A program made the position numbers and the translations under genes. Shown here piece by piece: positions 10,821 to 64,000 of a stretch of 64,000 nucleotides of DNA (position 1 is the first letter of the stretch; each line of letters begins with the position of its first letter). Where the stretch lies: sequence record PQ843332.1. The stretch is one strand, 5' to 3'. This DNA comes from Escherichia phage P-GXEC-L2P5. The notes under the pieces are model-generated. The model was not told the origin of the DNA. It worked only from the letters and a program-made list of their open reading frames with translations, and did no database searches.

Positions 10821-11042
10821 TTACCACTCCCGTGATTTAACTGATACTGTGCCTGAGAAATTGCCGTCGCTATCTGAAGACAGCCCAGTGAATCGCATGT
10901 CCACATCTCCTGCCGGGACTTTTTGCCCATCAACGTAGCGCAACATGCAGCTACCGTACGCAACCGTAATGCACTCGCCGTTGTTGCGTTCTACGGCGCA
11001 ACCGGATAAAAGAACCGCACAAATCATAATTAAAGTTTTCAT
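10821..11042 (-). CDS. small lipoprotein, candidate Llp/Cor-like superinfection exclusion protein
   Basis: Signal peptide MKTLIMICAVLLSGC with lipobox LSGC; AGGGGA RBS; lies between gpJ-like gene and tail fibre; mature part differs completely from paralogue at 61449-61667. Confidence 0.5.
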   Translation of the reverse strand: MKTLIMICAVLLSGCAVERNNGECITVAYGSCMLRYVDGQKVPAGDVDMRFTGLSSDSDGNFSGTVSVKSREW

Positions 11043-11122
11043 GGTATCATCCCCTATATTTGGTTGAGTTTTAGTATTACACCGCTCAACCAGGATTGCA
11101 ACCAATTTAAGAGGATTTAGCT

Positions 11123-12901: not shown

Positions 12902-12905
12902 ATAG

Positions 12906-12930
12906 AAGGGGCCATGCGGCCCCTTTTTTA
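12906..12930 (+). terminator. rho-independent terminator (aaggggccatgcggcccctttttta), bidirectional
   Basis: Perfect GC stem plus T-run between convergent genes. Confidence 0.65.
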
Positions 12931-13580
12931 GTTTGAGTTTTCCCAGTCCATTTTGCGCCGCACCAGATGGCTTTCGTAATATTCCTTGCCCTCAACTTCC
13001 ACTAAGGGCCAATCGTTAACAATCACGTACGGTTCCGCAATATCCTCAATCACGCCGTGCGCGCTTTGCGGCCCTAACGACACGCCCACCAGGATAACAC
13101 CGGCAACACGACGGGCAAGATACTCACGAGCGCAGCGCGCCTCTACCAGTCCGCGACGGATGCCGCTGGTGGCCTTAACTTCGTAGGTCCATACGGCATC
13201 GATCACATGCTCGCGGAAGTCGGGACCGGACTTCACCTTGCGCTTGCCGACCATGATGATATCGCCGCGACGGCATCGATCACATGCTCGCGGAAGTCGG
13301 GACCGGACTTCACCTTGCGCTTGCCGACCATGATGATATCGCCGCGGTCAATGGTATTGGCGCTAAACAGGCCGGTACGCATGAGCAAGCCTTGAGGAAT
13401 ACAACTGCGCCCTCCTGCCTGCCCTTCAAGATACATGCCTGCAAACATCTCGCCCAGCACACCGACCAGTCGGCTTTGCTTGCACGCGTCAGACTTTAAG
13501 CGCCACTGGTCAAACTCGATGCTTGCTATCATTGCCGCCAGGTGGAATTGTTTACCGGATATTTCATATTCGCCGTACAT
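12928..13580 (-). CDS. hypothetical protein, possible PD-(D/E)xK-type nuclease fold (frame broken by duplication near 13195-13345)
   Basis: ORFs 13233-13580 and 12928-13254 are contiguous; GDII...YEVK resembles D...(E)xK; homologue at 63627-64000. Confidence 0.3.
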
Positions 13581-33467: not shown

Positions 33468-33566
33468 TTATGCAAGCGTGATATAGTCCCAGTGAGCTCG
33501 GGTGGGAGTGGAAAGGCGTCGGCAAGTGGTCCGTTTTCGATTAATTATGCAAGCGTGATATAGTCC

Positions 33567-33597
33567 CAGTGAGCTAAAACTTACTGGGACTTTTTTA
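33567..33597 (+). terminator. rho-independent terminator (agtcccagt...actgggact + tttttt)
   Basis: 9-bp perfect stem plus T-run immediately before the holin-like start. Confidence 0.6.
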
Positions 33598-33887
33598 TGG
33601 ATAAGCTAAACGAGTGGCTATTCGCCCTGGCATGTCTGGCGGGTGGCTTCGTAGGCGCACGCATTCATGGTGAGGCTACGAAGGGGCCGCTAAACTTCGT
33701 TTTGTATGTTGTAGTTGGCTTCCTGTGTGCCATATTTGGCGCACCGGCTATTGCCGAGTGGGCTGGTTTGTCGGGTGAGCGCACTGTCGCCGGTTTGGGC
33801 TTCGTAACTGCGATCTTCTGGATGCCAATCGCCGACCGGATCAGGGAGACTATTGCGTCGTTCCGACTTCCGGGGGGCGCAAAATGA
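33597..33887 (+). CDS. holin-like membrane protein
   Basis: 96 aa with three hydrophobic segments; immediately upstream of second membrane protein and lysozyme. Confidence 0.5.
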   Translation: MDKLNEWLFALACLAGGFVGARIHGEATKGPLNFVLYVVVGFLCAIFGAPAIAEWAGLSGERTVAGLGFVTAIFWMPIADRIRETIASFRLPGGAK

Positions 33888-34129
33888 TTATCTCCGTCCT
33901 GTTGTTTGTTATCATCGGGGCTTCGTCCCTGTTTAACGTGTATGCGCCGTCCGTCCGGGATGGCATTTTCGGTCGGGTGCTGTATCTGTTAACGGCAATG
34001 GTCTGTATTATCGGATTGTTGCAAACAGGAGACGTATCGGATACCACCTGGACCGCGTTAATCTGGCTGTTTGCATTGCGCACCCTGCGTAATGCTGTTT
34101 TAAATGGGGTAAAACATGCGATTCAGTGA
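33884..34129 (+). CDS. membrane protein, holin/antiholin candidate
   Basis: 81 aa, 2-3 hydrophobic segments; stop overlaps endolysin start. Confidence 0.4.
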   Translation: MIISVLLFVIIGASSLFNVYAPSVRDGIFGRVLYLLTAMVCIIGLLQTGDVSDTTWTALIWLFALRTLRNAVLNGVKHAIQ

Positions 34130-34192
34130 TAACGGTCTTCTGGCTGTTTGCATTGCGCACCCTGCGTAATGCTGTTTTGAATGGGGTAAAAC

Positions 34193-34838
34193 ATGCGATT
34201 CAGTGATAACGGTCTACGATTTACGGCAGCCTGGGAGGCTTTCAGCCCGGTGCCGTATTTCGCGACCAAGAAAGAGCAGGCCCGCGGCCTGTACACCTGG
34301 GGCTATGGTCACAGGCTTTCAGCCCGGTGCCGTATTTCGCGACCAAGAAAGAGCAGGCCCGCGGCCTGTACACCTGGGGTTATGGTCATACCGGCACTAA
34401 TCCGCCTCGAAGCATTACCCGCGAGGAAGCGCTGGCACTGCTCAAGCGCGATGTGGCGTATGCTGAGGACTGGGTTAACAAATACGCACATCCGAGCATT
34501 AACCAGGCGCAATTCGACGCGCTGGTGGACCTGGTAATCAACGCCGGTCCGGGTCCGATCGTACCGGATGACGTCGCGAATGATTTCGATGATGCGGTGT
34601 GGTGGACCTGGTAATCAACGCCGGTCCTGGTCCGATCGTACCGGATGACGTCGCGAATGATTTCGATGATGCGGTACGGTTGGGCGACTGGGCGAAGGTC
34701 CGTGCTACGCTGCCGCAGTTCCGCAAGCAAGGCGGCGAAGTGCTTAAGGGTCTGGTACGCCGTGCAATCGGCAGACAGGCGTTGTTTGATGGTAAGCAGT
34801 GGGACGTTGCCGAACGAATCGGTCGTAACGCTGCATAA
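34193..34838 (+). CDS. endolysin, lysozyme-like (frame broken by duplications near 34270-34360 and 34540-34640; start duplicated at 34112 and 34193)
   Basis: WEAFSPVPYFATKKEQARGLYTWGYGHTG resembles the lysozyme E...Y...G-x-GHT signature. Confidence 0.65.
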
Positions 34839-35105: not shown

Positions 35106-35133
35106 AAGCCCGGAATTAACCGGGCTTTTTATT
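35106..35133 (+). terminator. rho-independent terminator (aagcccgg-aattaa-ccgggctt + tttta)
   Basis: Perfect 8-bp stem plus T-run. Confidence 0.65.
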
Positions 35134-35136
35134 GCT

Positions 35137-35172
35137 TGACTTGCAACCAACATAGACTCTATACTGCGACCA
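35137..35172 (+). promoter_or_regulatory. sigma70-like promoter TTGACT - 18 bp - TATACT; spacer contains TGCAACCAA
   Basis: Hexamers read directly from sequence; located after terminator. Confidence 0.45.
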
Positions 35173-36570: not shown

Positions 36571-36603
36571 CAGCCCAGCCTGCCGATTTGGTGGGCTTTT
36601 TTG
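36571..36603 (+). terminator. rho-independent terminator (cagcccagc...gtgggct + tttttt)
   Basis: Stem-loop plus T6 after the phosphoesterase gene. Confidence 0.5.
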
Positions 36604-38788: not shown

Positions 38789-40691
38789 ATGACCGTTAAC
38801 GTTGACAACCAGCACCCGCTCTATGCGCGCATAGCGCCAGAGTGGAAAATGATCCGTGACTGCGTAGCAGGGGAGCGCGCCGTGAAGGCGTGCGGGCCAT
38901 TGTACCTGCCACACCCCGCAAGCGGGGACACCACCGACCCGAAATCACGGGCACGCTATAAGGCATATAAGCAACGCGCTGTCTTCCTGAACGCCACCGC
39001 CCGCACACTGAATGCGCTGTTAGGTGTCGCCTTCGCCAAACCGGTGAGTATGGACCTTTCCGGGGCAATGGCTGACCTGATTGATGACGTAGACGGCAGC
39101 GGGATGCCACTGGCGCAACTACTGCGCGGCGCTATGTCGGAAGTGCTGCAATCAGGCCGTGCCGGTTTTATGGTGGACTACGACCGCCAGGCGCATTTTG
39201 ACGAACTGGGTAACGTAGTGCCGCAGACCGCCGCTGAAATGGCGGCACACCGCCCGCTTATCCGCCTGTATACGGCTGAACAGATCATCAACTGGCGGCG
39301 CAGACCGCCGCTGAAATGGCAGCACACCGCCCGCTTATCCGCCTGTATACGGCTGAACAGATCATCAACTGGCGGCAGACCCACGGGGTAGACACGCTAA
39401 TCGTGCTGAAGGAGACGGACGAAATCAGCACCGAAGACCCGGACGACTTCGCAAACCACGAAGTTACGATCTGGACCGAGTGCTGAAGGAGACGGACGAA
39501 ATCAGCACCGAAGACCCGGACGACTTCGCAAACCACGAAGTAACGATCTGGACCGAGCTTCGCATGATTGCAGGTGCGGCACATGCCCGCCGCTGGTTTT
39601 ACAACGCGGACACGTCCGAGGTGCAAATGGACTTGCCGCGGGGATTCACCCGCACCGATCTTGTACCGCTGGTGGATGCCTCCGGTAATGCGCTTACTCA
39701 ACTGCCATTTTGCTGGTGTGGTGCGGTGGACAACAACGCGACACCGGACGCCGCACCGCTGGCGGATATTGCGTCCATCAACATTAAGCACTACAACGCC
39801 GAGTGGACAACAACGCGACGCCGGACGCCGCACCGCTGGCGGATATTGCGTCCATCAACATTAAGCACTACAACGCCGAAGCAGACGTCGCCGAGATTGC
39901 GCACATTGTGGGCCAACCTACACTCATTGCGACCGGTCTGACCCAATCATGGGCCGATAAAAACCTGAAGGGAGGCATCGCGCTCGGTGCAACTAAGGGC
40001 GTTATCTTGGGCCAGAACATGGACGCTAAACTGCTTCAAGCTGAGGAGAGAAACCTGTCAGTTGCGCTGTGTGAGCGACGCGAATTGCAAATGGCTAAAC
40101 TGGGCGCGGCCCTGGTCGAGAAGGGGGAAACCTGTCAGTTGCGCTGTGTGAGCGACGCGAGTTGCAAATGGCTAAACTGGGCGCGGCCCTGGTCGAGAAG
40201 GGGACCGCACCTAAGACGGCAACTGAAGCGGCCTACGATGCGCAGACTGATAACAGTATCCTGTCACTGATTGCCGGTAACGTTGAGAAGGCTTTCAACC
40301 GTGCGCTGCAGATCGTCAAGCTGTTCACGGGGGACACCGCAGATCAACGTGTAACGCTGAATAAGTTCTACACCGAGATCACGGTGGATGCACAGCTTAT
40401 GACCGCAATGATGGCGGGTGTGCAGACCGGTACGGTCCGTCTGGCGGACTTTATCAAGTGGATGATGCACAGCTTATGACCGCGATGATGGCGGGTGTGC
40501 AGACCGGTACGGTCCGTCTGGCGGACTTTATCAAGTGGATGATGGCCCAGGGCGTTATTGATGACTCGCAAACCGTCGAGCAGGTGGAAGACGAACTGCG
40601 AAATCAGAATCCATTGCCTCAAATGTCCCCGGATGCGGTAGAATCTACCGAAGAAGACCAGGACAAGGTAGCGGACAATGGCGAAGACAAT
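38789..40691 (+). CDS. portal protein (frame broken by five duplications between about 39260 and 40500)
   Basis: About 560 aa after removing duplicates; position directly after terminase large subunit; acidic C-terminus. Confidence 0.55.
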
Positions 40692-42012
40692 TAATCAATA
40701 TATGGCGGATCGAATGATCCGCCGTCACATCTTCACCCAGCGCCTTAGCAATGACCAGGCGCGAAGGGTGCTGTCCATGTGGGAGAAGTTCCGGCCCACA
40801 TTACTGGGAAAGCTGACCGAGTTGCTTGATGGCAAATCGTCAATGAATAACAGGGCACTTTCCACCCTGCTAACGCAAATCGACAAGACCGTTAAATCAG
40901 AATTGCGCACCGAGTTTAAGGCGTTGGCTGAAAGCCTTCAGGAGTTCGCCGACACGGAGGCTGATTATCTCACCGACACATTAACGGCAGCGATCCAGCC
41001 GGTGGTGAAAGCCTTCAGGAGTTTGCCGACACGGAGGCTGATTATCTCACCGACACATTAACGGCAGCGATCCAGCCGGTGGTCGCTGTACCTGCGGTCG
41101 AGGTGGTTGGCGTAGTGACCGGTGCGCAGATCGCAGCGACGGCAATGAAAAACCCGTTTCAGGGCAATACCCTGATGCAATGGCCCGATTCACTTTCAGA
41201 ATGGACCAGGACGCAGATCGGCAATCAGGTGCGCGCGGGATTCATCCAGGGTAAGCCGACTTTGGAAATTATAGCGGACGTGAGGCGCGCGCTCGGCGGT
41301 CGTAGTGCGCAAGCTCTCTCAAGCGTTGTTAAGTCCGCAGTCAACCACTATGCGGCGACCGCCCGCGAACTAATGGTAAAAGCAAATGACGATATTCTCG
41401 AAGGTCGCCAACAGCAGTCAACCACTATGCGGCGACCGCCCGCGAACTAATGGTAAAAGCAAATGACGATATTCTCGAAGGTCGCCAATGGTTATCTACA
41501 TTGGACACGCATACTTCTCCCATGTGCCAGCTACGCGATCGCCTGTTTTATCCGGTTGATGTTACTCCCGACACCAAAGGAAAGCGCGGCGGGAAAATGG
41601 TGGCTGGGTCACAATATGGCGCTGGTCCGGGCAAGTTGCATTATTGCTGCCGGTCTACGGAGACGTGGAAGGTTAAAGGCATGGAAGATTGGCCCAGTGG
41701 TAAGCGGGCAAGTTGCATTATTGTTGCCGGTCTACGGAGACGTGGAAGGTTAAAGGCATGGAAGATTGGCCCAGTGGTAAGCGTCCGGCACTGAAGGCTG
41801 ACGCTGGTCGATTGCTGAGTGAGCAGGTCGACGCGCAGACTGATTTCTTCTCATGGGTGCAGCGCCAGCCGCGCCATATCCTGGAAGAATTATACGGAGT
41901 GCAACGCGCCGACCAGATTATGCGCGGCGTGAAAGTGCCGAAGATGTTCACCGATTCAGGCGAACTAATGACTATCGCACAGCTTAAAAACCGGGGGTTA
42001 TGGCGTGATTAA
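40678..42012 (+). CDS. head morphogenesis protein, Mu F / SPP1 gp7-like (frame broken by duplications near 40960-41080, 41340-41460 and 41640-41760)
   Basis: WLSTLDTHTSPMCQLRDRLFY signature region; position after portal. Confidence 0.6.
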
Positions 42013-42334
42013 ATATGCAGCGATTGGACTGATTATCGGTCTGGCGGTAGGATTCTGGCTAGGTGACTCCTATCGCACTGGCGTAGTGGCGGAGGCGGCG
42101 CAAGAAGCGCAAGCCCAAGCCCAACGGCAGCAAACTAAAGTTGTTGAGCGCTCCGTGCAGGCCGAACAAGCCCGCGACGTAGAATACCGGACTATCACGA
42201 AAGAGGTTGTTAAATATGTTACGCGCCCTAACCGCCCTGATTGTAGTTTTGATGCTGAGCGCGTGCGGATCAAGCAACGCGCCGTTGATGCCGCTAACGG
42301 AGTCGGCACTGCGACCGCCGTGCAAGTTCGATAA
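42005..42334 (+). CDS. Rz-like inner-membrane spanin candidate
   Basis: N-terminal TM helix IKYAAIGLIIGLAVGFWLG then Gln/Ala-rich coiled coil; embedded lipoprotein ORF in +1 frame. Confidence 0.45.
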   Translation: MIKYAAIGLIIGLAVGFWLGDSYRTGVVAEAAQEAQAQAQRQQTKVVERSVQAEQARDVEYRTITKEVVKYVTRPNRPDCSFDAERVRIKQRAVDAANGVGTATAVQVR

Positions 42335-42440
42335 CCCGTCTGCGGACCCCGACGAAGATTTGATGATTGATGTTAAAAATATGGAATGCGGGGGCCGTGC
42401 AAGTTCGATAGCCCGTCTGCGGACCCCGACGAAGATTTGA
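42207..42440 (+). CDS. Rz1-like outer-membrane lipoprotein spanin candidate, embedded in and extending past Rz-like gene (C-terminus affected by duplication near 42300-42440)
   Basis: Signal peptide MLNMLRALTALIVVLMLSACGSS with lipobox LSAC; Pro-rich mature part. Confidence 0.45.
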   Translation: MLNMLRALTALIVVLMLSACGSSNAPLMPLTESALRPPCKFDNPSADPDEDLMIDVKNMECGGRASSIARLRTPTKI

Positions 42441-42475
42441 TGATTGATGTTAAAAATATGGAATGCGGGGCGAAG

Positions 42476-42700
42476 CTAAGGGCGCAGGTGCTGGAGTTGC
42501 AGCAAATAATTAAGGGGCCGTAATGGCCCCTTTTTCGTTAGCGCGGCGAATGTGCGAATGCCGTCCGGCATACAGTCCAGCGTGATTGCGTACGCCAGAT
42601 CGCGTGAGTCCATCATGATTTGTTTGGCTTCGGTTGCGATTTCGTGGTCGCGCAGGATGTTAGCCAGGATCTGATGTTTAATATCTTTCGTCAGTCTCAT
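42476..42700 (-). CDS. hypothetical small protein on minus strand within head module
   Basis: 74 aa ORF; 3' end runs into the terminator hairpin, so true stop is uncertain. Confidence 0.3.
   Translation of the reverse strand: MRLTKDIKHQILANILRDHEIATEAKQIMMDSRDLAYAITLDCMPDGIRTFAALTKKGPLRPLNYLLQLQHLRP
42512..42537 (+). terminator. bidirectional rho-independent terminator (aaggggccgtaatggcccc + ttttt)
   Basis: Perfect GC stem with A-run before and T-run after. Confidence 0.6.
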
Positions 42701-42771
42701 TTTTGTGTCCTCATTATTGGGGCTTTCGCCCCGATTGGTTTAGTTAAATTTGATGTTGCCGCTGGTTGAGG

Positions 42772-43131
42772 TTAAGCGAGCACATACAGCTTCAACGGCA
42801 TCGACGCACATGAAATCGTTAAAGGCTTCGACCAGCCACCGGTGGAAGTTAAGCGGGCACATACAGCTTCAACGGCATCGACGCACATGAAATCGTTAAA
42901 GGCTTCGACCAGGGCGTTTATGAAAGATGCCGGAACCAGGCCGCAAGCCGGATTATCGAATATCGCGGAGTTGATCGCCGCTTTTGCCGCTTCAGAAGCA
43001 TTCATGCTCTGGCACAGATTCAGCGCTTCCGCGTTACGCATTGCGTGAAAGGTAAAGGTATTCGCTACGGTAGCTTTATTGAAACGGGCCATTGCGGCGT
43101 CTACTGGAGTTGCTACGGTCATGTTAGTCAT
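42772..43131 (-). CDS. hypothetical protein on minus strand (frame affected by diverged duplication near 42768-42912)
   Basis: Start ATG 43131 with AGGAAG RBS; ATTGGTTGCACACCAACA about 28 nt upstream. Confidence 0.35.
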   Translation of the reverse strand: MTNMTVATPVDAAMARFNKATVANTFTFHAMRNAEALNLCQSMNASEAAKAAINSAIFDNPACGLVPASFINALVEAFNDFMCVDAVEAVCARLTSTGGWSKPLTISCASMPLKLYVLA

Positions 43132-43348
43132 TTTGTCTTCCTTCATATCTCTGTTGGTGTGCAACCAATTCCAGCAGCGCAAGCGAATTTTGCGATTATT
43201 TTTATCACTGATAATATTAAGGCGTGAAGTCAAGCGGGTGGCCCGCTTTGCCACAATCAGCGAATTTTGCGATTATTTTTATCGCTGATAATATTAAGGC
43301 GTGAAGTCAAGCGGGTGGCCCGCTTTGCCACAATCCCAGGGGGATAGC

Positions 43349-48963: not shown

Positions 48964-49432
48964 TTGAGGCGGCGCGGCGCTTTTATGGCCCGCCCACTTC
49001 GTACTATCTCGAACTGATGGGATTGCGTGAAAAAAACTAATTGAGGCGGCGCGACGCTTTTATGGCCCGCCGCCACCCTCCGAAGATTTAGCCGCGAGTT
49101 TATGGGGCGCGGCCCCTGAAGATGTTTGCCCACCAGTTGCGCTATGGCCCGACAACGCGAAGGTAGTCGCCGTCTTCACGGATTGCTCCACGCAATGGCG
49201 CACCGGATTCGGCGGCGCATACGGCATCGACTACGGCGTACTGGAATGGCTTTTTAAGATGCACGGCATCGAAAACGCGCCGGATTCGGTGGCGCATACG
49301 GCATCGACTACGGCGTACTGGAATGGCTATTTAAGATGCACGGCATCGAAAACGCGCAACGTGCGTTTAAAGATATCAAGCTAATGGAACGCGTTGCGCT
49401 GGATGAAATGGCGCGGCAGAACCCCGCATAAC
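48954..49432 (+). CDS. gpT-like extension reached by -1 frameshift from the G-like gene (region contains duplications near 48937-49080 and 49180-49330)
   Basis: The -1 frame after AAAAAAC reads KKLIEAARRFYGPPPPSEDLAASLWGAAPEDV... and ends ...KLMERVALDEMARQNPA-stop at 49432. Confidence 0.5.
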
Positions 49433-49893
49433 GGAGCGGGACAGGCGGGACGTCCCGTTTTGTCCCGCCACCACTAAACCGCATATATACTCACTTTCAT
49501 TGCATAAATTAAAAGCGGGACAGGGGTGCTGTCCCGCTTTGTCCCGCCCCCAAAATGTGAATATCTATTCGATTTTCGTGCATAAAACAAACGGGACAAA
49601 AAGCGGGACAGAATTGGGCGGGACAAAGCGGGACAGCACCCCTGTCCCCGCCAGTGCTGCCGCGGGTTTTAGCCGATCGGGACAGGCGGGACAAAGCCCA
49701 GTCTTTCAGACTAGACGGGGGGTCTGTCACCCCCCTCGTCTGAGACTGAATAAGGTTTGTTTTAAATTCGCTGATACAATGACCGACGGCAACTGCATAA
49801 AAAGGGCCCCCCTCGTCTGAGACTGAATAAGGTTTGTTTTAAATTCGCTGATACAATGACCGACGGCAACTGCATAAAAAGGGGGACTGCATA
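49433..49893. repeat. non-coding repeat module R3, second-copy counterpart of R1
   Basis: Same GCGGGACA arrays, inverted pair GCGGGACAGGGGTGCTGTCCCGC, hairpin and TGCATAAA boxes; ORFs called here are spurious. Confidence 0.7.
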
Positions 49894-52800
49894 ATGGCAG
49901 ATCAGGCAGCGGGCATCACGCTCAAGGCGGACGTCGCGCAAATTAAAACGGCGAATACTGTGCTGGACACATTTGCGCAGAAATCCGAGAACACAGAACA
50001 GAAAGTCAAAAAATTAAACGACACCCTCGGCAAGTCGAAAAAGGTCACTGGCGACGCCGCGGGCGGAATGGAAAAGTTAGCGACTGAATCGCAGCGCGCC
50101 GCCGACGGCATGACGAAACAGGAGCGACTAGCCAGCCGATTAGGCATGTCGACCAAGAACCTGGGATTCGCATCGCCGCCGACGGCATGACGAAACAGGA
50201 GCGACTCGCCAGCCGATTAGGCATGTCGACCAAAAACCTGGGATTCGCATCGCGGAACGCCGCATTCCAGTTACAGGATATCGCGGTTACGCTTGAGATG
50301 GGTATGCCGGTGCACCGCGTCATGCTTCAGCAGCTACCGCAGCTTACTGGGGCGTTTGGCGGACTGGGAAACACGCTGCATTATGTCGTCGGCACACTCG
50401 GCCCGTTAGGGATTGGCATCGCTGCATTAACGGCAACGCTCGGCGTAGGGGTGGCAATTACGACCCGCGCAGAGAACCAGGTGGCGGCGCTTAATAAGAC
50501 GCTGGCGCTGTCCGGTAATATTTCAGGCCTGACAGCTAACCAGATCCTTGTGCTGTCCGAGAACGCCGAGCGCATGGGCGGGTCATTTCGCAAGACGCGT
50601 GACACAATCCAGGCGCTGGCGGCGGCGGGTGTGAAAGCGGGTGGTGACTTTGGCGCATTGGCTAAGGTAGTGAATGACTTTGCGAAGGTGTCCAGCCAGC
50701 CGATCGAGGATGTGGTGGCGGCGGTGGCGAAGCTGTCAAGAAGGTAGTGAATGACTTCGCGAAGGTGTCCAGCCAGCCGATCGAGGATGTGGTAGCGGCG
50801 GTGGCGAAGCTGTCAACCGACCCCGTTGGCGGACTGCGTGCGCTGGCGGATAAGTATCACGTCGTAAACGAAGCGCAGATCCAGCAGGTACAGTCGCTCG
50901 TTGATGCGGGTCGTGAGACAGACGCAGTTGCGTTGGCTAACAAAACAGCCGCTGCGTCGTTCACCAGCATGACCAATGAGATCAAGGCGAACATGGGTAC
51001 GCTTGAGCGATCTATGAACGTCGTCACATCGGCAGCCAAATCAATGTGGGACGCTATCCTGGATGTGGGTCGCGCGCAGTCCTCCAATGAGTCCGAGATG
51101 AAAGCGCGCGAATCACTCCAGCGCATGACCACGGCTTACTATGCCGAGATGAAAGCGGTAAACGCTGCCGGTGGGGTAATGACTGAAGCGCACTGCAGCG
51201 GCTGACCACGGCTTACTATGCCGAGATGAAAGCGGTAAACGCTGCCGGTGGGGTAATGACTGAAGCGCAGAAAGCACGTATTAACATGCTTTACAGCGAA
51301 CTGGTCGCCCAGGAAAAAGTGGTGGCGTCGCTCACCCTGCGTAACCGTGCGGAGCGAGACAACGCCCGCGCCGCAGATGAATCCGCAAAGGCGAACGAGG
51401 AGGCCAACCGCACCGCCCGCGACCGCGCCGCGTTTGAAAAGGAGTACGCAACTAACGCGAAGAAGCGCGCCGACGAGATCGCCCGCCTCAATTTGCTGAA
51501 TAAGCGCGGCGTTATTGATGAGAAAGAGCTTGCCGAGGCGGTTAAGCAGGTAAACGAGCGTTACAAAGACCCGGCCCCGAAGAAGGCCGCGGCTGTTCGC
51601 GTGGATGCCGGTATGAAAATGCTGGAAGTCGCACGGAGCGAACTGGCCCAGCTCCGAAAAAGGCCGCGGCTGTTCGCGTGGATGCCGGTATGAAAATGCT
51701 GGAAGTCGCACGGAGCGAACTGGCCCAGCTTCGAGAATCCGGCAAGCAGATCGAAGCCAACGCGTCTACGCAGACCCGCACGCAACGCGCGCAAGCGGCC
51801 TTAAACAAGCTGATCGCCGACAATGAGCAGTTAATCGCCGCAAGCAAAGAAAGAGCGCTAACGGCAGCCGAAAAGCAGCAATTAGTCGAGTTCGGGCGCG
51901 TGAAGGAAGTCCGCGAGCAGATCGTCGAAGAAGCCAAATTGCTGGACGCGAAAGAGAAGCAGGTTAAGGCGCACGCGCAGATCGATGCCTTCGTTAAGAA
52001 CCAGAACGCCGAACTATGCTGGATGCGAAAGAGCAGCAGGTTAAGGCGCACGCGCAGATCGATGCCTTCGTTAAGAACCAGAACGCCGAACTAAAAGCCA
52101 CCGCCGCGGGGTATGCGCTTTCCACTCGCGAAGCGGCAAACCTGCGCGAAGAATTGCAGCTAATCGACCGCCTGAAGCGTGTAGGCGCTAACGATACCGA
52201 TATTGACAAGGCGGTGTCTAAGCTGCGAGAATGCAGCTAATTGACCGCCTGAAGCGGGTTGGCGCTAACGATACCGATATTGATAAGGCGGTGTCTAAGC
52301 TGCGAGAAGTGCAGGAAGCACAGACCGGCGCTAACGCCTCGTTATGGGATGGATTCAGTCGCGGGCTTAAGGATAGCGTGGATGAAATGGGTAACGGATA
52401 TACGCAGATGGCGTCTCTCACGAAATTCACATTCAGCGCTATGCAGGACACGATGAACGAGTTTTTCGAGACTGGCAAGCTGAACGCAAAGGATATGGTT
52501 AAGTCCATCCTGAGCGAATTAATCAAGCTGGCTACCTCGCAGGCGTTCAAGTCCATCGTTAGCGCTTTCGGTGGCGACGGCGGCAAAAACGGATTGTTCG
52601 GCGCTATCTTCTCGGGCCTCACCAAGAATGCGGACGGCGGAGCGTACGTGGCGACGGCGGCAAAAACGGATTGTTCGGCGCTATCTTCTCGGGCCTCACT
52701 AAGAATGCGGACGGCGGAGCGTACACCGGAGGCAATCTCGCGGCCTATTCGGGGCAAGTGGTGAGCCAGCCTACCTTTTTCAGTTATGGCGTCCAGGCGT

Positions 52801-53152
52801 TCGCTAAGGGCGCTGGGTTGATGGGTGAGGCTGGACCCGAGGCCATCATGCCGCTGAAGCGCGGGCCGGACGGGAAACTGGGCGTTGCCGCGTCTGGCGC
52901 AGGCGGTGGTATGGTCGTGACGACTAACGTTTACACGGGGACCGGTAAAACGGATACCAGTGTGCCGCGTCTGGCGCAGGCGGTGGTATGGTCGTGACGA
53001 CTAACGTTTACACGGGGACCGGTAAGACGGATACCAGTGTCAGCGGGCCGGATCCCCGTACCGCGCAGGCGTTCGGCAAGCAAATCACCGAGGCGGTGAA
53101 GGCCGAGATCGTGAAGGCGACGAAACCGGGTGGTGTACTTTACAAACGATGA
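49894..53152 (+). CDS. tail length tape measure protein, second copy (fragmented by tandem duplications)
   Basis: ORFs 49894-50190 through 52671-52997 are collinear with 605-3401 at about 95% aa identity. Confidence 0.7.
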
Positions 53153-53186
53153 TAAAATGGCCCTCACTACAACGTGGGGGCTTTTT

Positions 53187-54017
53187 ATGTCACAAGGTAC
53201 AATCACACTAACGAAAGGAAGTAAGACCGTCACGGGCGCGGGAACGGCGTTCCTTAGCGAGATCGGGAAGGTACTCGTATTCGCCCGCATCGACGGCAAC
53301 GACTACACCGGCAAAATTGCGGCATTCAACTCGAACACGGTCATTACTCTGAAAGATAACTGGGCCGGGACGGCAACGACTACACCGGCAAAATTGCGGC
53401 ATTCAACTCGAACACGGTCATTACTCTGAAAGATAACTGGGCTGGGCCGACGAAATCCGGTGCGGCATATGAGCTAATCGAAGCACACGACCCGCGATCA
53501 AACGAATGGCCCTATTACTGGCACATGCAATTGCAAGGCGGCGGAGTGAGCTAATCGAAGCACACGACCCGCGATCAAACGAATGGCCATATTACTGGCA
53601 CATGCAATTGCAGGGCGGTGGCGACGTGCAGTTAGCTTTCCGGTCGGAGGAATTGCAATTCGGTAACGGTTACGGACAGAACATCGCGGACGGCCCGAAC
53701 GCCGAAACGAAACAGTTCCCCGTGCAATTCGTCGGGCTGACTACGGACAAATGGTGCGCATCGCGGACGGCCCGAACGCCGAAACGAAACAGTTCCCCGT
53801 GCAATTCGTCGGGCTGACTACGGACAAATGGTGCAATCCTAAACTGGTTTACAACTTCCTTCGCGGTCACTTCGTAAAACCGTTTGTCGTCACAGCACCA
53901 GATGGCGAAACAGGTTTATTCGTGGTCGAGCGTTCGAGCTTGTCGTACACGGACAACGGGCACTACACGGCAACGGTATCCGCCACCCTTAAGACTGCTA
54001 TTGGATTCGTAAGATGA
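53187..54017 (+). CDS. minor tail protein, gpM-like, second copy (frame broken by duplications near 53330-53430, 53470-53620 and 53690-53840)
   Basis: Collinear with 3436-4112. Confidence 0.5.
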
Positions 54018-54879
54018 ATAAACTTTATCGCGAGGCGACGCGCTTTGACCCATCGGGCCGCGTTCGCCTGATTCACATTGACGCGCAGGACGTGGAACCA
54101 GGCGACGGCGCGATCGGAGCGGGCCATCACTATTTTCATTACTGCTTCATTCCGCTGACGCGCAGGACGTGGAACCCGGAGACGGCGCGATCGGCGCGGG
54201 CCACCACTATTTTCATTACTGCTTTATCCCACACACTGCGGAGGATATCGCTGCCGCGGGTGGTGACGAGGATAAGCTAAAACCTAAATCAATCTTCTTC
54301 GGCGGGCAGGAGTTCGAATTTTGGCCCTTCGATTTGTCCGGCCTTAACTTTTCCACATCGACGGCAGCAGAACCGCAACTAACAATCGTCGATATTGGCG
54401 GCATAATAACCCGGCTGTCACTGAATCACGACCAGCTACTGGGCGCGAAGGTTGAAATAATCGACACATTCGCGAAGTTCCTGGATAACGGGTCGGACCC
54501 AGACCCGACGCAGAAACGAGTGCAGGAGTATTACATCGACTCGCAGGTCGGGCGCAATCCAGGCAAGCAAATCACCTTCGCACTATCCTCCCCCGCGGAT
54601 ATGGAAGGGCAGGTCGTTCCCCGTCGCCAGATCATGAACATGTGCGAATGGGCGCTCAACGGGAAGTACGCCAGCGGGGACGGTTGCACATGGAACCTTG
54701 CACAGCCTGGAATAAAGTATTACGACGAGCGAGGTAATGAAGTCATCGCAATGAATATGGACCGATGCGGCGGCTGTTTGTCCGACTGCTATCTTCGTTT
54801 TGGGCAAGGGCTTGCGGATCCTAAAGCTGCGGTGCTGGACTTCGGTGGTTTTCCTGGGTCCAAATTAATCAAGGGGTAG
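54014..54879 (+). CDS. minor tail protein, gpL-like, second copy (frame broken by duplication near 54090-54200)
   Basis: Collinear with 4109-4897. Confidence 0.7.
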
Positions 54880-54881
54880 CC

Positions 54882-55622
54882 ATGTTAACGAAAAAGGTTA
54901 AAAGCGATATCGCCGCGCACGTTGCGGCATGTCTGCCTGAAGAAGCCTGTGGCCTTGTTGTCATGGTGGGCCGCAAACAAGTATTTGTCCCGTGCATGAA
55001 CGTATTCGAAGACCCGACCGGCGTGCGCTCACGCAGAGACGCATTCACGATTAGTGATATGGCCTGGATGGATGCCGAGGATATGGGCGACGTCGTGCGA
55101 GTAGTCCACTCGCATCCAGGCCAGCGAGAGCTTACACCCTCACTTGGCGACGTTAACGGATGCAACGGCAGCGGCGTAGTCTGGACCATCACTAACGAAT
55201 ATGGCGACTTTATCGAGATCGACCCTGAAGACCCGCCGCTGGTAGGCCGCCGATTTGTTCTCGGAATTACAGATTGTTATGGCCTCGTCATGGACTGGCA
55301 CAAAAAGCAGGGTGTAAACCTGCCAGACTTCCGCGTGCCGTATAACTGGTGGGAGACAGGCGAAAATCTGTATATGGATAATTGGTACGGTGCTGGCTTC
55401 AGGGAATGCGAGGAGAATACGCCGGGGGCAATGGTCATCATGCAGATTAGCGCGCCTGTGCCTAACCACGCTGGGATATTCCTTCCGGGCAACCAACTAC
55501 TACACCATATCTACGGCAGCCTGTCGAGCGTGATTCCCTTCCGGTCAGGATTTTTCCGGGACAATGTGGTTAAATGGGTACGTCATAAAGACCTACCGGG
55601 GAATATAACAGAATGGCAATGA
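54882..55622 (+). CDS. tail assembly protein, gpK-like, second copy
   Basis: Intact 246 aa ORF; about 11 substitutions relative to 4900-5640. Confidence 0.8.
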   Translation: MLTKKVKSDIAAHVAACLPEEACGLVVMVGRKQVFVPCMNVFEDPTGVRSRRDAFTISDMAWMDAEDMGDVVRVVHSHPGQRELTPSLGDVNGCNGSGVVWTITNEYGDFIEIDPEDPPLVGRRFVLGITDCYGLVMDWHKKQGVNLPDFRVPYNWWETGENLYMDNWYGAGFRECEENTPGAMVIMQISAPVPNHAGIFLPGNQLLHHIYGSLSSVIPFRSGFFRDNVVKWVRHKDLPGNITEWQ

Positions 55623-56384
55623 CCACATTTAAATTATACGGCGTTTTAGGACGTCGATTCGGTAAAGTGCATAAGCTGGACTGCTTCACTCCGGGCGAGG
55701 GTATCACCGGCCTGTGCGTGAAGTTACCCGGCTTACAGGACTTTCTAATGTCGGCCCACCTGGACAATATGATGTTCAAGGTGCGCAAAGGCGACCACAC
55801 GATGACCGGCTATGATGAGCTGGGCGAGTTCCACGGCAACCGCGTATGATGTTCAAGGTGCGCAAAGGCGACCACACGATGACCGGCTATGATGAGCTGG
55901 GTGAGTTCCACGGCAACCGCGTCGTTACCATCGCGCCGGTTATGACGGGCGCAAAAAGAGGGTTGGGACAATTGCTGGCGGGTGTCGCGATCGTAGTGGC
56001 GTCGTTCTATACGGGCGGACTTGCTACTGCCGCTTTCGGGGCTTCGGCTGCAACCGCTGCCGCTATCGGGACGGCGACGTTTTCGTTCGGGATGTCGATG
56101 GCGCTGGGTGGCGTTATGCAATTGCTGTCGCCACAACCGAAAGGATTGCAGACAAGGCAGGACGTGGATAACAAAGCGTCGTACGCGTTCGGCGGGCCTT
56201 GCTGTCGCCACAACCGAAAGGATTGCAGACAAGGCAGGACGTGGATAACAAAGCGTCGTATGCGTTCGGAGGCCCAGTAAACACTACCGCGCAAGGCACG
56301 GCGCTTGGTGTATTATGGGGCGAGCGTGAGATCGGCGGCGCTATTATTTCAGCCGGAATCGTAACCGAGGACTTGAACGAATGA
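55613..56384 (+). CDS. tail assembly protein, gpI-like, second copy (frame broken by duplications near 55790-55880 and 56150-56260)
   Basis: Collinear with 5631-6248. Confidence 0.6.
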
Positions 56385-59300
56385 CGATTATCTACGACGT
56401 CACAGGGCATAAAGGCGGCGGCGGCAAACAGCACACCCCGCAGGAGACGCCCGATAGCCTGCATTCGCTGGCTAAAATCCGCATCTTGCTTGCGCTGGGG
56501 GAAGGGGAATTCGAAAGTATTACCAGCGCCAGCGAATTGCGGCAGCGTGTATATCTGGACGGAACACCGATCCAGAACGCGGACTTGTCCGAAAACTTCC
56601 CCGGCGCGCGTGTGGAGTTCCGCCCCGGAACACAGCACCAGGATGTGATCCACGGATTTTCAGCGGTGGAAAGTGAGCAATCTGTCGGCGTAAAACTGGA
56701 AAACGGCACGCCGTGGGTGCGCCAGATTAACGACACCAGCTTGGACGCCGTGCGCATTCGCATCGGCATTCCGGCACTGTACACAAACGAAGATAATGGC
56801 GACCTGGTGGGCGGGCGCATCGACTATAAGATCGTTGTGTATACGGATAACGCCGACCCGCGTGAGTTCAGATTCGCCGCCGTTGGTAAAACAATGTCGA
56901 CTATAAGATCGTTGTGTATACGGATAACGCCGACCCGCGTGAGTTCAGATTCGCCGCCGTTGGTAAAACAATGTCGCTGTATGAGCGCGACCACCGCATA
57001 GAATTACCTCCGAACGTTAACACCGGCTGGCGCGTGGAGGTGCACCGCATAACGGCAGACTCCACATCGGCGAAAGTGGTTAATGATATCCGGGTGCAGT
57101 CCATCACTGAGATTATTGACGCCCGCCTGCGTTACCCGCTAACCGCGCTGTTGTTTGTGGAGTTCGACGCCAAAGCGTTCCAGAACATCCCGCGCGTGCC
57201 CGCCTGCGTTACCCGCTAACCGCGCTGTTGTTTGTGGAGTTCGACGCCAAAGCGTTCCAGAACATCCCGCGCGTGTCCATCAAGTGCAAAGGCCGCAAAG
57301 TTCTAATACCGAACAACTACGACCCGATCAATCATACCTATGCCGGGTACTGGGACGGCACGTTTAAACGCGCATGGACGGATAACCCTGCGTGGCACTG
57401 GTACGATATTTGTATTACTGAGCGCTTCGGCCTCGGTCGGCGTATCAAACCGCAAATGCTAAACCGATACGCGCTCTGTACGATATTTGTATTACTGAGC
57501 GCTTCGGCCTCGGTCGGCGTATCAAACCGCAAATGTTAAACCGGTACGCGCTCTACCAGATTGCGCAGCGCTGCGATCAGTTGGTCAGCGACGGCAACGG
57601 TGGTCGAGAAATCCGCTTTAAGAATGATATGTACATTCAGTCACAGACGGATGCCTGGACCGTGCTTAAGGATTTAGCCGCCATCTTCGCTGGGATGACC
57701 TGGTGGGGAAACCAAATGTTGAATATCGTCAGTGACCAACCGGTCGCAGCAGTGTCGCACACTATCACCAACGCCTCGGTTATTGATGGCCGATTCGACT
57801 ACGCATCAGTGACCAACCGGTCGCAGCAGTGTCGCACACTATCACCAACGCCTCGGTTATTGATGGTCGATTCGACTACGCGTCCGGTAGCCAGAAAACT
57901 CGGTATTCCACATTCGCGGTAGCATACGGCAACCCGAAGAACCACTATGAAGATGCCATCGCAACGGGGCAACGTGTCGAACTGGTACGCCGCCATAAGA
58001 TTAACCGTCTTGATATAACGGCGATCGGCTGTACGCGTGAGTCAGAAGCGCAACGACGTGGGCACTGGGCGCTAATCTCCAACCAGCTTGACCAGCAAGT
58101 TAGCTTTAAGGTGGGCATGGAGGGACTTTTCTTTATTCCTGGTAGCGTAGTCGCGATCGCCGATACAAACATTTCTGGCGGCTTCGAGACACGCGGCGGT
58201 CGCCTGTTGTCGGACCCTGGCACGCGTACCGTGCTTAACACGGACAGCGAAATCACATTCCGCCCAGGTGATAAATTCCTGGTACGCACCGATAGTGGTA
58301 ATGTAGAGACTCGCGAGATCGCCAGCGTCAACGGCAACAAGGTTACGCTAAAAACCGCACTGGACGCCGACCCGATTCCTGATCAGCCGTTTTGCGTCGA
58401 TGGCAACGATATCCAGTTGCAGAAGTTCCGCATCACCGACCTGGAATATGACGACTCTACGAGCACTTTCTCGGTGCGCGGGATTGAATACAACGATAGC
58501 AAGTATGATGCCGTTGATAATGGCGCTCGCCTTGATCCTGGTATCTTCACGCAAGTGCCCGACGGGGTAATGAAGGGGCCGGAATCCGTGACCATCACCC
58601 CGTCGCAGATTTCATCGCAAGGACAGCTAATCACCAACGTGGATATTGTTTTCGGCCGGAATCCGTGACCATCACCCCGTCGCAGATTTCATCGCAAGGA
58701 CAGCTAATCACCAACGTGGATATTGTATTCCCTCCGGTGAAGGATGCCGTGGTGTATGAAATCCAGTGGAGGCGTACCAGCCTTCAGAATATGGAAATCC
58801 AGTGGGGTAACGACTGGGTGAATATCCCACGCACGGCGTCGAACGGCGCGCACATCCCTAACGTGTTCTCCGGTAACTACCAGGCACGCGTCCGCGCGAT
58901 CGGTATGGGCGAGATTTCATCTCCGTGGGTGTCGTCCGCCATCACGCCGGTGGAAGGTCGTCTCGGTGGGCTTAACGCACCAATCATCACCAACGCTATT
59001 TCGGGCCTTCACCAGATCTTGTGGAAGTGGAACCACAACAACGCCGCTACTGATATCTCGTACACCGAGCTTGAAGTGCGCAAGACCGGTGAGACTGAAT
59101 GGAAATTCCTTACCAACGTCCCATATCCGGGGGCGGAGTATGCGCAAACATCGCTGGAGTTCGGAATTTACCAGCAGTTGCGCGCCCGTGTAGCGGATAA
59201 AATCGGCAACCTGTCGGACTGGTCGGCCCCGTTTGAAGGGCAGGTGAGTGACAAAGTTGACGAGTACATGAAGGGGCTTGATGACGAGTTCTTGACTTCC

Positions 59301-60339
59301 GAGGATGGTAAACGCTTCCAGGAAGCAATCAAGTTGACGAGTACATGAAGGGGCTTGATGACGAGTTCTTGACTTCCGAGGATGGTAAACACTTCCAGGA
59401 AGCTATTAACACGATCCCGCAAGGCATTTATGAGTCAATGCTCACCGACGCCCAGCAGCTATTCAACGCCCGCGCCGAGTACAAAGGGATTTATGCGGAA
59501 ATCAAGGTCGCGTATAACGTGGCGGCGGACGCCCACAAGGCGGTCGCTCAACTGGAGACGTTGATCGGCACGCGACTTGATGACGCGGAAGCTGCGATCC
59601 ACACGTTGCAGACGGCGCAGACGCTCAACTGGAGACGTTGATCGGCACGCGACTTGATGACGCGGAAGCTGCGATCCGCACGTTGCAGACCGCGCAGAGC
59701 ACACAGGAACAAGCGTTCGCCCAGTACCAGCAAACTGTTGCCGCTAAGTTCGGGGAACAGGAAGCCGCCATCCAGCAGGTACAAACGGCAACCGCAGACG
59801 TGGCGGGAGCGCTGGCGGAATATAAGACCCAGGTCGCTACACAGTTCGGTCAGCAGTCCGCCGCTATCGAGCAGAAGATGACGTCCTCGTTTAACCACTC
59901 TGGTGGTAGCGCCACGTATAGCCTTAAGGCTGGCGTGACATATAACGGGACTTATTATGATGCGGGTATGCAGCTCTCCGTCGTGACGTCTGGCAACGCG
60001 GTTAAATCGCGTATTGCGTTCAAGGCGGACCAGTTCTACATCATGCATCCGTCCAATGGGACGCTGTCGTCTGCGTTTATTGTGGACGGTGGCGCGGTGT
60101 ATATCGACACGGCACGCATCAAGAACGCGTCCATCAACTTCGCGCAGATAACAGACACGCTGCAATCGAATAACTACGACGGCAGCACGCGCGGCTGGCG
60201 CTTAGGGAAAGATGGAACGTTTATCAACCTGGGCACCGGTAGCGGCGGCGGGATGAAACAGACGAACACAAGAATCAGCGTGAAGGACGGAAACGGCGTT
60301 CTCCGCGTGCAGATTGGTGAGCTTACTGGTAGCTGGTAG
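56381..60339 (+). CDS. host specificity protein, gpJ-like, second copy with divergent C-terminal domain (fragmented by at least seven duplications)
   Basis: N-terminal about 1,000 aa collinear with 6322-9826; extra repeat block and a different last ~60 aa. Confidence 0.75.
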
Positions 60340-60375
60340 TATAGGGGCTTCGGCCCCTTTTTAACGAGGTTATTT

Positions 60376-60678
60376 ATGGCATTCGGTATCGCAACGTGGG
60401 ACGCGCAAGGACGCCCAAACAACTACGGCATTAAACCGGTAAGCGTGATCGGAAGGATTCATCTTGCGGAAGGACAAAAATCAGGCGCATGGTCATTCCC
60501 TGTACCGGCGGGGATGAAGGTCGGATACGTGGTCGCACTGGATAAAGGCGCGGTCGGGCCAGGACGCAGAATATCTGCCAGCGGGAACACTATCACGGTT
60601 TCCGCGGCAAGTGCAGTAGGTGGCGGGGTTTACTCCGCATCTGAATGTGACGTTATTGTTTTTGTGGAGCGAGCATAA
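60376..60678 (+). CDS. hypothetical protein specific to second copy
   Basis: Intact 100 aa ORF replacing the minus-strand cassette found after gpJ in copy 1. Confidence 0.4.
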   Translation: MAFGIATWDAQGRPNNYGIKPVSVIGRIHLAEGQKSGAWSFPVPAGMKVGYVVALDKGAVGPGRRISASGNTITVSAASAVGGGVYSASECDVIVFVERA

Positions 60679-61429
60679 TGGCTAATTACGGCGCGTTGAT
60701 TGACTTACCAAACGGCAACCCGTTTATCACGCCAGAATCGACGCCGTTTTGTCTCTTCCGCCGTGTGGTTGTTGGGTCTTCGGCTAACGGCACTGCGCAG
60801 TCGGCGGCTGCCGATATTAATTTGGGTGGTGACTACCCTGCAATAGCGTTTGTTAAAACTACGCACACCGCCCAGCCGACCGTCGTAGGGTCTTCTCGCG
60901 TTGGTAATGTGGTGAAGGTGAGCGCCAGCAATCCATTCGGGCAGGGCTTCACGATGACGGCTTACATCTTTGCTATATTCCCACAGACCCTTCCGCGGTG
61001 GGGCTTCGCTATTTGGGATAAGACGGGGAAGCTAGTGCTTACTAATGAGAGTCGCGTACTAAGTCCCTTCCGCGGTGGGGCTTCGCTATTTGGGATAAGA
61101 CGGGGAAGCTAGTGCTTACTAATGAGAGTCGCGTACTGAGCGATTTAGTTACCGTCGGGTCGCCTGGCGCTAACGGGGGGATTAACATTGATCAGACGCT
61201 AAACGGCAGCTACGCCGTCGCACCGGGAATATTGGGGTCTACGCTGATCCGGTTTTTTGTGCAGGGCCAGCCGCAGGTAATATCGGTAACGGCGTACACG
61301 GGGGCCAGATTTGATGGGTCGCGAACTCGTATATCGGCAGCGTCGTCGGGGAACGCCACGGGGGATGTGGTGGGGTATACTAACAACGGCAACGCGATTA
61401 TGGCGATTAACACTGCCAATTATGATTGA
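60678..61429 (+). CDS. hypothetical protein specific to second copy (duplication near 61030-61130)
   Basis: ORFs 60678-61112 and 61112-61429; ATGA-type overlap with upstream gene. Confidence 0.4.
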
Positions 61430-61430
61430 A

Positions 61431-61456
61431 GAAAGCCCCGAAAGGGGCTTATTTGC
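61431..61456 (+). terminator. bidirectional rho-independent terminator (aaagccccgaaaggggctt)
   Basis: Perfect stem between convergent genes. Confidence 0.55.
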
Positions 61457-61667
61457 AGGTTGTGCTTTTGAAATGGTCTACAGACACGTACTGGAAGCTA
61501 AACGGATAACCCGCCCTTAGCATTTTATGCCCGGAGAAGTCCGCAACACCATACACAGGTACCGCATAATCCATGCCGCTATTCTGGTATGTGGCGTCGC
61601 AGACTTTAGCGGGCATGTTGGCACAACCGGACAAAAGAACCGCACAAATCATAATTAAAGTTTTCAT
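61449..61667 (-). CDS. small lipoprotein, second-copy variant with unrelated mature domain
   Basis: Same signal peptide MKTLIMICAVLLSGC as 10821-11042; mature part ANMPAKVCDATYQNSG... is unrelated. Confidence 0.5.
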   Translation of the reverse strand: MKTLIMICAVLLSGCANMPAKVCDATYQNSGMDYAVPVYGVADFSGHKMLRAGYPFSFQYVSVDHFKSTTCK

Positions 61668-61747
61668 GGTATCATCTCCTATATTTGGTCGAGTTTCAGT
61701 ATTACACCGCTCAACCAGGATTGCAACCAATTTATGAGGATTTAGCT

Positions 61748-63526: not shown

Positions 63527-63528
63527 GA

Positions 63529-63555
63529 GAGGGGCCATACAGCCCCTTTTTAGTT
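63529..63555 (+). terminator. rho-independent terminator (gagaggggccatacagcccc + ttttt)
   Basis: Stem-loop plus T-run after tail fibre gene. Confidence 0.55.
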
Positions 63556-63626
63556 TGAGTTTTCCCAGTCCATTTTGCGCCGCACCAGCGGGCTTTCGTA
63601 ATATTCCTTCCCCTCCACTTCCATTT

Positions 63627-64000
63627 TTAGTTTGAGTTTTCCCAGTCCATTTTGCGCCGCACCAGCGGGCTTTCGTAATATTCCTTTCCTTCCACTTCCA
63701 CCAAAGGCCAGTCGTTCACAATCACGTATGGCTCCGCGATATCCTCAATCACGCCGTGCGCGCTTTGCGGCCCTAACGACACACCAACCAGGATAACACC
63801 GGCAACGCGACGGGTCAGATATTCGCGAGCGCAACGTGCCTCAACCAGCCCACGACGGATGCCGCTGGTGGCCTTAACCTCGTAGGCCCATACGGCATCA
63901 ATCATGTGTTCTTTGTAGTCAGGGCCGGACTTAACCTTGCGCTTGCCGACCATGATAATATCGCCGCGGTCGATAGTGTTAGCGCTAAACAGGCCAGTAC
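63627..64000 (-). CDS. hypothetical protein, homologue of 12928-13580 (partial; 5' end beyond window; duplication near 63550-63680)
   Basis: ORF 63627-63953 closely matches 12928-13254. Confidence 0.3.
   Translation of the reverse strand, partial: TGLFSANTIDRGDIIMVGKRKVKSGPDYKEHMIDAVWAYEVKATSGIRRGLVEARCAREYLTRRVAGVILVGVSLGPQSAHGVIEDIAEPYVIVNDWPLVEVEGKEYYESPLVRRKMDWENSN

Follow-up and report, generated by a model that had tools for sequence, protein, structure and literature searches.

On sequence evidence, the gene pair that follows the head-morphogenesis gene of Escherichia phage P-GXEC-L2P5 (PQ843332.1) is very probably a Dhillonvirus two-component spanin that belongs to the 'Jersey' family and has overlapped genes, one of which is broken in the raw sequence by an assembly duplication. 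We refer to the whole 64,000-nt stretch that was analysed as the window. Judged by similarity, the window is a Dhillonvirus, a coliphage like HK578, JL1 and SSL-2009a. A megablast search of GenBank phages with positions 41000-43300 matched 157 phage records, nearly all of them Escherichia siphophages of the genus Dhillonvirus, including JL1 (98.4% nucleotide identity), vB_Eco_Lzu_P3 (97.3%), SSL-2009a (96.8%) and PEC14 (96.5%). In these matches the spanin region is labelled 'head morphogenesis', 'hypothetical protein' or 'Rz-like spanin'. Many GenBank records have a truncated outer-membrane gene, or leave the spanins as 'hypothetical protein'. The features used below are the following.

33597-33887, + strand: first holin gene, 96 aa, phrog_2359 'holin' (E-value 8.5e-32)
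33884-34129, + strand: second holin gene, 81 aa, phrog_2508 'holin' (E-value 1.9e-27)
34116-34838, + strand: endolysin gene, 163 aa without the apparently artefactual inserts 34139-34215, 34312-34388 and 34599-34675; PF00959 (E-value 9.1e-21), phrog_7
40678-42012, + strand: head-morphogenesis gene, 367 aa without the apparently artefactual inserts 41006-41082, 41412-41488 and 41705-41781; SSL-2009a gp04 has 1104 nt
42005-42334, + strand: predicted inner-membrane spanin (i-spanin) gene, GTG start, 109 aa; phrog_2536, SSL-2009a YP_002720087.1, Jersey homology
42216-42393, + strand: predicted outer-membrane spanin (o-spanin) gene, 5' part, ATG 42216, +1 frame relative to the i-spanin; SSL-2009a YP_008550147.1
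42317-42393 and 42394-42470: copies 1 and 2 of the duplication in the spanin locus, the second copy apparently artefactual
42471-42523, + strand: predicted o-spanin gene, 3' part, …AKLRAQVLELQQIIKGP, stop codon TAA 42521-42523; codon selection, phrog_5672, Jersey homology
42512-42532: terminator-like hairpin AAGGGGCC-GTAAT-GGCCCCTT then TTTCG, GC-rich, conserved in SSL-2009a

The i-spanin ORF had been recognised, together with a transmembrane segment, in an earlier reading made from the sequence alone, and both hold. The protein begins with MIKYAAIGLIIGLAVGFWLG, followed by a charged remainder rich in Q, A and E. It is hydrophobic only at residues 1-20 (Kyte-Doolittle 1.97), and the best 17-aa windows begin at residues 1-5. 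The prediction is thus of a single N-terminal transmembrane segment (~residues 2-20) and a periplasmic domain of ~89 aa that contains a single cysteine, Cys80. Single-sequence AlphaFold2 modelling placed one helix at residues 5-72 and another at 84-97, joined by a linker (73-83). The confidence of this model is low (mean pLDDT 58.8), so it does little more than hint at a helical periplasmic domain. For the short i-spanin subfamily, Kongari et al. (PMC6139136) predict two helices and one beta motif. A GGGGG stretch at 41993-41997 lies 7 nt upstream of the GTG at 42005. As the sequence-only reading had noticed, the i-spanin start overlaps the end of the head-morphogenesis gene, by 8 nt (42005-42012) that include the stop codon of the latter. 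Translation of the spanin pair is probably coupled to that of the head-morphogenesis gene.

Removing either copy of the 77-nt unit from the spanin locus results in an o-spanin gene of 231 nt (42216-42393 plus 42471-42523), which encodes the 76-aa protein MLRALTALIVVLMLSACGSSNAPLMPLTESALRPPCKFD(N/S)PSADPDEDLMIDVKNMECGAKLRAQVLELQQIIKGP. The protein has the signal peptide MLRALTALIVVLMLSA and the lipobox LSAC, with a predicted lipidated Cys17 and a Gly rather than an Asp at position +2; the N-terminus is laid out as MLRALTALIVVLM-LSAC-G. The mature protein would have 60 aa, including seven prolines and the residues that are Cys36 and Cys58 of the precursor. It does not resemble a unimolecular spanin of the T1 gp11 type, in which one protein has both an N-terminal lipobox and a C-terminal transmembrane domain, as it is hydrophobic only in the signal peptide and has a polar C-terminus (…LELQQIIKGP). 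In the raw sequence, the +1-frame ORF spans 42207-42440 and has the N-terminus MLNMLRALTALIVVLMLSAC. This is the ORF that had been proposed to encode the lipoprotein. Its signal peptide, its lipobox LSAC and the location of its start (TTG 42207 or ATG 42216) stand, while its end at 42440 and its tail …GRASSIARLRTPTKI are products of the duplication. We rejected TTG 42207 as the start codon: the Shine-Dalgarno motif AAGAGG at 42201-42206 leaves 0 nt to this TTG versus 9 nt to the ATG at 42216, and RefSeq uses the ATG. A third listed ORF, 42386-42523, has a product that repeats 'PCKFD.PSADPDEDLMIDVKNMECG' and then runs on.

Tandem Repeats Finder identified 42317-42470 as two copies of a 77-nt unit with 98% identity. 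The length of 77 nt is not divisible by three, so the second copy throws the lipoprotein ORF out of frame and gives rise to the tail up to 42440. The copies differ at a single position, 42334 (A) versus 42411 (G), which corresponds to N39/S39, and both are natural alleles. We counted 80 tandem duplications of period exactly 77 across the window, and none of period 60, 70, 75, 76, 78, 79, 80, 90 or 100. Alignment to the complete SSL-2009a genome showed that at least 57 of the period-77 duplications are exact 77-nt insertions. Deleting the second copies shortens the window to 57,917 nt and leaves genes intact, among them those for head morphogenesis (367 aa) and the endolysin (163 aa). In the twelve duplications near the spanin locus there are 16 mismatches between copies, and for 15 of these both alleles are seen in natural relatives. 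We therefore rejected random (in-silico) mutation as the source of the mismatches; the copies look like the alleles of co-assembled strains placed in tandem. The 77-nt duplications thus look like an artefact of assembling a strain mixture. A k-mer size of 77 is common in assemblers, and the period may derive from it. The two strains merged in the assembly are ~92% identical.

Alternatively, the sequence could be correct as given, in which case a genuine 77-bp duplication would lead to a 77-aa lipoprotein with the novel C-terminus …GRASSIARLRTPTKI, and the o-spanin would be either a variant or defective. In favour of this, the window sequence does contain both copies, and phage genomes do undergo tandem duplication. 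Even so, we find this scarcely credible, as the ~80 duplications share the identical length of 77 nt and frameshift each of the three genes examined (head morphogenesis, endolysin and o-spanin). Others lie inside further genes, for example those for the portal and the DNA polymerase. With the portal, DNA polymerase and endolysin among the genes struck, a genome carrying ~80 frameshifting duplications could not be viable. The duplication at 42394-42470 was not found in SSL-2009a, JL1 or 15 IMG/VR Dhillonvirus genomes, and the junction between copies 1 and 2 had no exact match in IMG/VR or JGI metagenome contigs. Finally, the copies differ by alleles that occur naturally, which also argues against a genuine duplication. 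Below, we therefore interpret the spanin locus as a normal gene pair interrupted by an assembly artefact.

In the de-duplicated sequence, the two spanin genes share the stretch 42216-42334 (119 nt), and the predicted o-spanin gene continues for 112 nt after the i-spanin stop, to 42523. The architecture is overlapped and not the 'classic embedded' arrangement that the sequence-only reading had described. That description fails on the raw coordinates as well, since 42440 already lies beyond the i-spanin stop at 42334. The 15 close IMG/VR relatives, whose i-spanins are 75-98% identical, all have an overlapped layout, with an overlap of 98-119 nt and an extension of 112-133 nt past the i-spanin stop. 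Two relatives at ~37% identity are overlapped too. The lipoprotein ORF is likewise conserved: all 15 close relatives keep a 76-aa ORF with a lipobox of the form L/M-S/T-A-C, the lipobox Cys17, and Cys36/Cys58. Cys80 of the i-spanin and Cys36 and Cys58 of the o-spanin are conserved in relatives L006-L020.

We also compared codon differences between the relatives and the window in the separate parts of the two genes. The part that belongs to the i-spanin only has 136 synonymous and 86 non-synonymous codon differences in the i-spanin frame. The non-overlapping 3' part of the o-spanin has 99 synonymous and 32 non-synonymous differences in the o-spanin frame, while the corresponding counts for the other two frames are 9:123 and 4:120. 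The synonymous excess in the frame of each gene shows that purifying selection acts on both.

Several searches bear out the proposal that the locus encodes a two-component spanin. The i-spanin matched phrog_2536 (E-value 2.6e-36), and the o-spanin matched phrog_5672 (E-value 2.4e-26) and phrog_1267 (E-value 4.4e-12), all three annotated as 'Rz-like spanin'. BLASTP against the spanins of Salmonella phage Jersey detected 38% identity for the i-spanin (E-value 2e-15) and 46% for the o-spanin (E-value 9e-21). In the RefSeq record of SSL-2009a, both genes are annotated as 'Rz-like spanin' (YP_002720087.1, 109 aa; YP_008550147.1, 231 nt). The i-spanin family was found by tblastn in 666 phage records. 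Neither spanin had a Pfam match at an E-value ≤1, the Rz (Phage_lysis) and Rz1 lipoprotein models included, and an NCBIfam scan of both resulted in nothing meaningful. Membership of the lambda Rz/Rz1 sequence family, which the term 'Rz/Rz1-like' had suggested, is thus not borne out.

The pair is already known: it is catalogued for HK578-like phages and stands in its usual place. Kongari et al. 2018 (PMC6139136) list the spanins of HK578, JL1 and SSL-2009a among the members of the overlapped Jersey family, and describe a shorter EP23-to-SO-1 subfamily as well as the two conserved o-spanin cysteines. The short-subfamily spanins of HK578, JL1, SSL-2009a, EP23 and SO-1 (PMC6139136) are the same genes with the same lengths of 109 and 76 aa, and the i-spanin of the window has 95-98% amino-acid identity to those of HK578 and SSL-2009a. 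Spanins of this subfamily likewise share 119 nt, extend 112 nt past the i-spanin stop, occupy the slot after head morphogenesis and have the same cysteine pattern. We found no biological difference between them and the window pair, which departs from them by a small number of natural substitutions and the artefactual 77-nt insert.

The prototype of the family, gp09/gp10 of Salmonella phage Jersey, is a homologous pair that is overlapped as it is here. Its i-spanin, with 128 aa, is longer and falls into a subfamily whose linker has two predicted beta strands, and its overlap measures 155 nt. The Jersey spanins have head morphogenesis on one side, at a distance of two extra genes, and scaffold on the other; a stretch of ~8.7 kb that runs over the record ends separates them from the holin-holin-endolysin genes. 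In the paper on Jerseyvirus SeF1, the same four PHROGs (2536, 5672, 2359 and 2508) are found as Gp_009/010 and Gp_063/064.

Like the window pair, lambda Rz/Rz1 combines a type-II inner-membrane protein with an outer-membrane lipoprotein whose gene is in the +1 frame, and the mechanism is presumably shared, although a sequence-family relationship is undetectable (no Pfam match). Whereas Rz1 is wholly embedded in Rz, the o-spanin of the window runs past the i-spanin stop; and the lambda pair adjoins S and R, while the window pair is ~6.2 kb downstream of the holin-endolysin genes. In Kongari et al. (PMC6139136), LysB/LysC of phage P2 also fall under the overlapped architecture as a separate sequence family. 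The same authors place T4 PseT.3/PseT.2, which are unlinked to holin and endolysin, in a 'separated' class and a family of their own (PMC6139136). The T4 example shows that spanin genes need not adjoin the holin and endolysin.

The sequence-only reading had also placed the spanins in the head-gene cluster, apart from a holin-endolysin cassette at 33597-34838. This cassette is present, as two holin genes followed by an endolysin gene. The endolysin belongs to the phage lysozyme fold family, and no N-terminal transmembrane or SAR segment is evident in it. The separation of the two modules is real, but its proposed size of 8 kb was inflated by inserts: from the endolysin stop to the i-spanin start there are 7,166 nt in the raw sequence and 6,242 nt once twelve artefactual 77-nt inserts are removed. 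The same gap in SSL-2009a is ~6.65 kb, across the record origin, and includes an Ig-domain protein, an exonuclease-like gene, the terminase subunits, the portal and head morphogenesis, all on one strand. A check of relatives confirmed the location: the spanins lie apart from the holin-endolysin genes in SSL-2009a and Jersey too, and the spanin slot is common to JL1. The location after head morphogenesis is therefore real, conserved and already annotated. In Yersinia phage P400, the head-assembly gene is followed in this slot by an endolysin gene, a gene for a small membrane protein and a homologous spanin pair, also overlapped, which physically links this spanin family to lysis genes.

This location, between head morphogenesis and scaffold and ~6 kb from the holin-endolysin genes, might instead mean that the pair has no part in lysis. 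A membrane protein and a lipoprotein could serve another role, for example in superinfection exclusion or as an accessory to head assembly, and the lack of a Pfam Rz/Rz1 match would fit with this. In the literature searched, Jersey-family and Dhillonvirus spanins had annotation-level mentions only, with neither an experimental test nor a discussion of their location, so the case for a lysis role is one of features, homology and gene linkage. These nevertheless make a role other than lysis highly improbable. The pair combines the spanin traits that can be checked in sequence, namely an N-terminal transmembrane segment, an outer-membrane-type lipobox, overlapping out-of-frame genes and periplasmic cysteines. 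The annotation of SSL-2009a offers no other spanin candidate, homologues adjoin the endolysin inside the lysis cassette of Yersinia phage P400, and Kongari et al. include the pair among their curated spanin families. Given that the pair is a spanin, its conserved placement in Dhillonvirus and Jerseyvirus could reflect a regulatory logic that ties spanin dosage to the structural genes, or be the relic of a P400-like lysis cassette. We consider either of these unlikely compared with a neutral rearrangement.

A related suggestion was that the lysis genes are split across two late transcription units, with a bidirectional terminator following the spanin pair. We did find a GC-rich hairpin followed by a T-run at 42512-42532, and the o-spanin stop codon lies within its loop. 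Its U-tract is canonical on the + strand and weaker on the − strand (AATTATTT). Whether the two modules are independently terminated units or parts of one long rightward transcript is an even call. Phage lambda has a transcript of the latter kind, which starts at pR' and continues across the lysis genes to the head genes. In the window, a consensus scan identified further + strand terminator-like hairpins at 33562-33591, 35106-35127 (8 pairs, 6 GC) and 36577-36597, the latter two between the modules. A promoter-like site with a 10/12 consensus match is located at 35136-35165, between the endolysin and terminase genes, and the annotation of Jersey has a promoter-like site just after the endolysin there too. 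These pattern matches, the hairpins and the promoter-like site, are compatible with a holin-endolysin unit that is separate from a terminase-to-spanin unit. Conversely, all annotated genes of SSL-2009a from the holins through the o-spanin are on one strand, and the hairpin at 42512-42532 is the first convergent point. The scan detected 19 terminator-like sites versus 9.7 in shuffled sequences, some of them duplicated by the artefact, so that each individual site is weak evidence.

By analogy with lambda Rz/Rz1, the i-spanin would be anchored in the inner membrane with its N-terminus inside and its C-terminus outside. The o-spanin would be lipidated at Cys17 and, given the Gly at +2, sorted to the outer membrane. 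The C-terminal periplasmic parts of the two proteins may then bind each other through the murein meshwork, and both are probably disulfide-linked homodimers, through Cys80 of the i-spanin and Cys36 and Cys58 of the o-spanin. After the holins have released the lysozyme-type endolysin and the peptidoglycan has been degraded, the spanin complex would fuse the inner and outer membranes and so finish lysis. The pair would be expressed from the structural-gene block, in which terminase, portal and head morphogenesis precede the spanins and which would be closed by the hairpin at 42512-42532.

The practical lesson of this locus is one of data quality, as period-77 duplications pervade the assembly. 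Where an ORF looks odd, be it truncated, 'embedded', fused or split, the de-duplicated sequence should be consulted before the oddity is interpreted. To the biology of these phages the locus adds little, as it holds the catalogued spanin of the HK578-like phages.

At 64,000 nt, the window exceeds one genome (approximately 44-45 kb), and its tail region is present twice, at 1-13378 and again at 49366-64000. After de-duplication, the removal of second repeat copies described below, the two tail copies are only approximately 88-92% identical, and so the contig joins two different Dhillonvirus strains and is not one genome wrapping around. Across the whole window we also found approximately 80 tandem duplications, every one with a unit of exactly 77 nt (e.g., at 296, 1222, 2897 and 63547) and with a median spacing of approximately 500 nt, which cause frameshifts in the genes examined and are absent from the reference genomes. 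Because the differences between copies checked near the spanin locus are natural alleles, the duplications probably arose as an artefact when a mixture of strains was assembled, and we infer that their period reflects an assembler k of 77.

At and beyond the 3' end of the o-spanin gene, two ORFs lie on the opposite strand:

42476-42700, minus strand: convergent ORF of 74 aa, similar to phrog_1965
42772-43254 (de-duplicated), minus strand: gene for a conserved 109-aa protein (phrog_24635, E-value 1.4e-71)

The convergent ORF covers only positions 3-60 of the 208 in phrog_1965 and looks like a deletion remnant; SSL-2009a, a reference Dhillonvirus, has a 765-nt gene at its place. The 3' end of the 74-aa ORF crosses the terminator hairpin of the spanin locus in antisense orientation and shares 48 nt with the end of the o-spanin gene. 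The 109-aa protein, whose gene separates the spanin pair from the scaffold gene, has counterparts in JL1 gp56 and SSL-2009a gp08.

Both spanin genes are labelled 'hypothetical protein' in most Dhillonvirus GenBank records, and in the RefSeq record of JL1 the i-spanin is the only one of the pair annotated. The phrog_5672 family has only 47 positions and matches just o-spanin residues 32-76, which suggests that it was derived from truncated gene calls. The coordinates in other phages are:

JL1 (NC_019419.2), 2561-2791: annotation gap in the spanin pair
Yersinia phage vB_YenS_P400 (OK042081.1), 2750-4319: complete lysis cassette, directly after head-assembly and HNH genes
P400, 4080-4319: o-spanin, lipobox MSGC

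The P400 cassette encodes a small protein, an endolysin, a 75-aa hydrophobic holin-like protein, the i-spanin and the o-spanin, the last annotated only as a shortened 47-aa 'hypothetical protein' (4176-4319).

Just downstream of the window's own lysis cassette, a consensus scan identified one further region:

35106-35165: GC-rich hairpin and sigma-70-like promoter

The hairpin (AAGCCCGG…CCGGGCTT, with TTTATT) is followed after 9 nt by a 10/12 match to a sigma-70 promoter (TTGACT-18-TATACT). The site is a candidate transcription-unit boundary.
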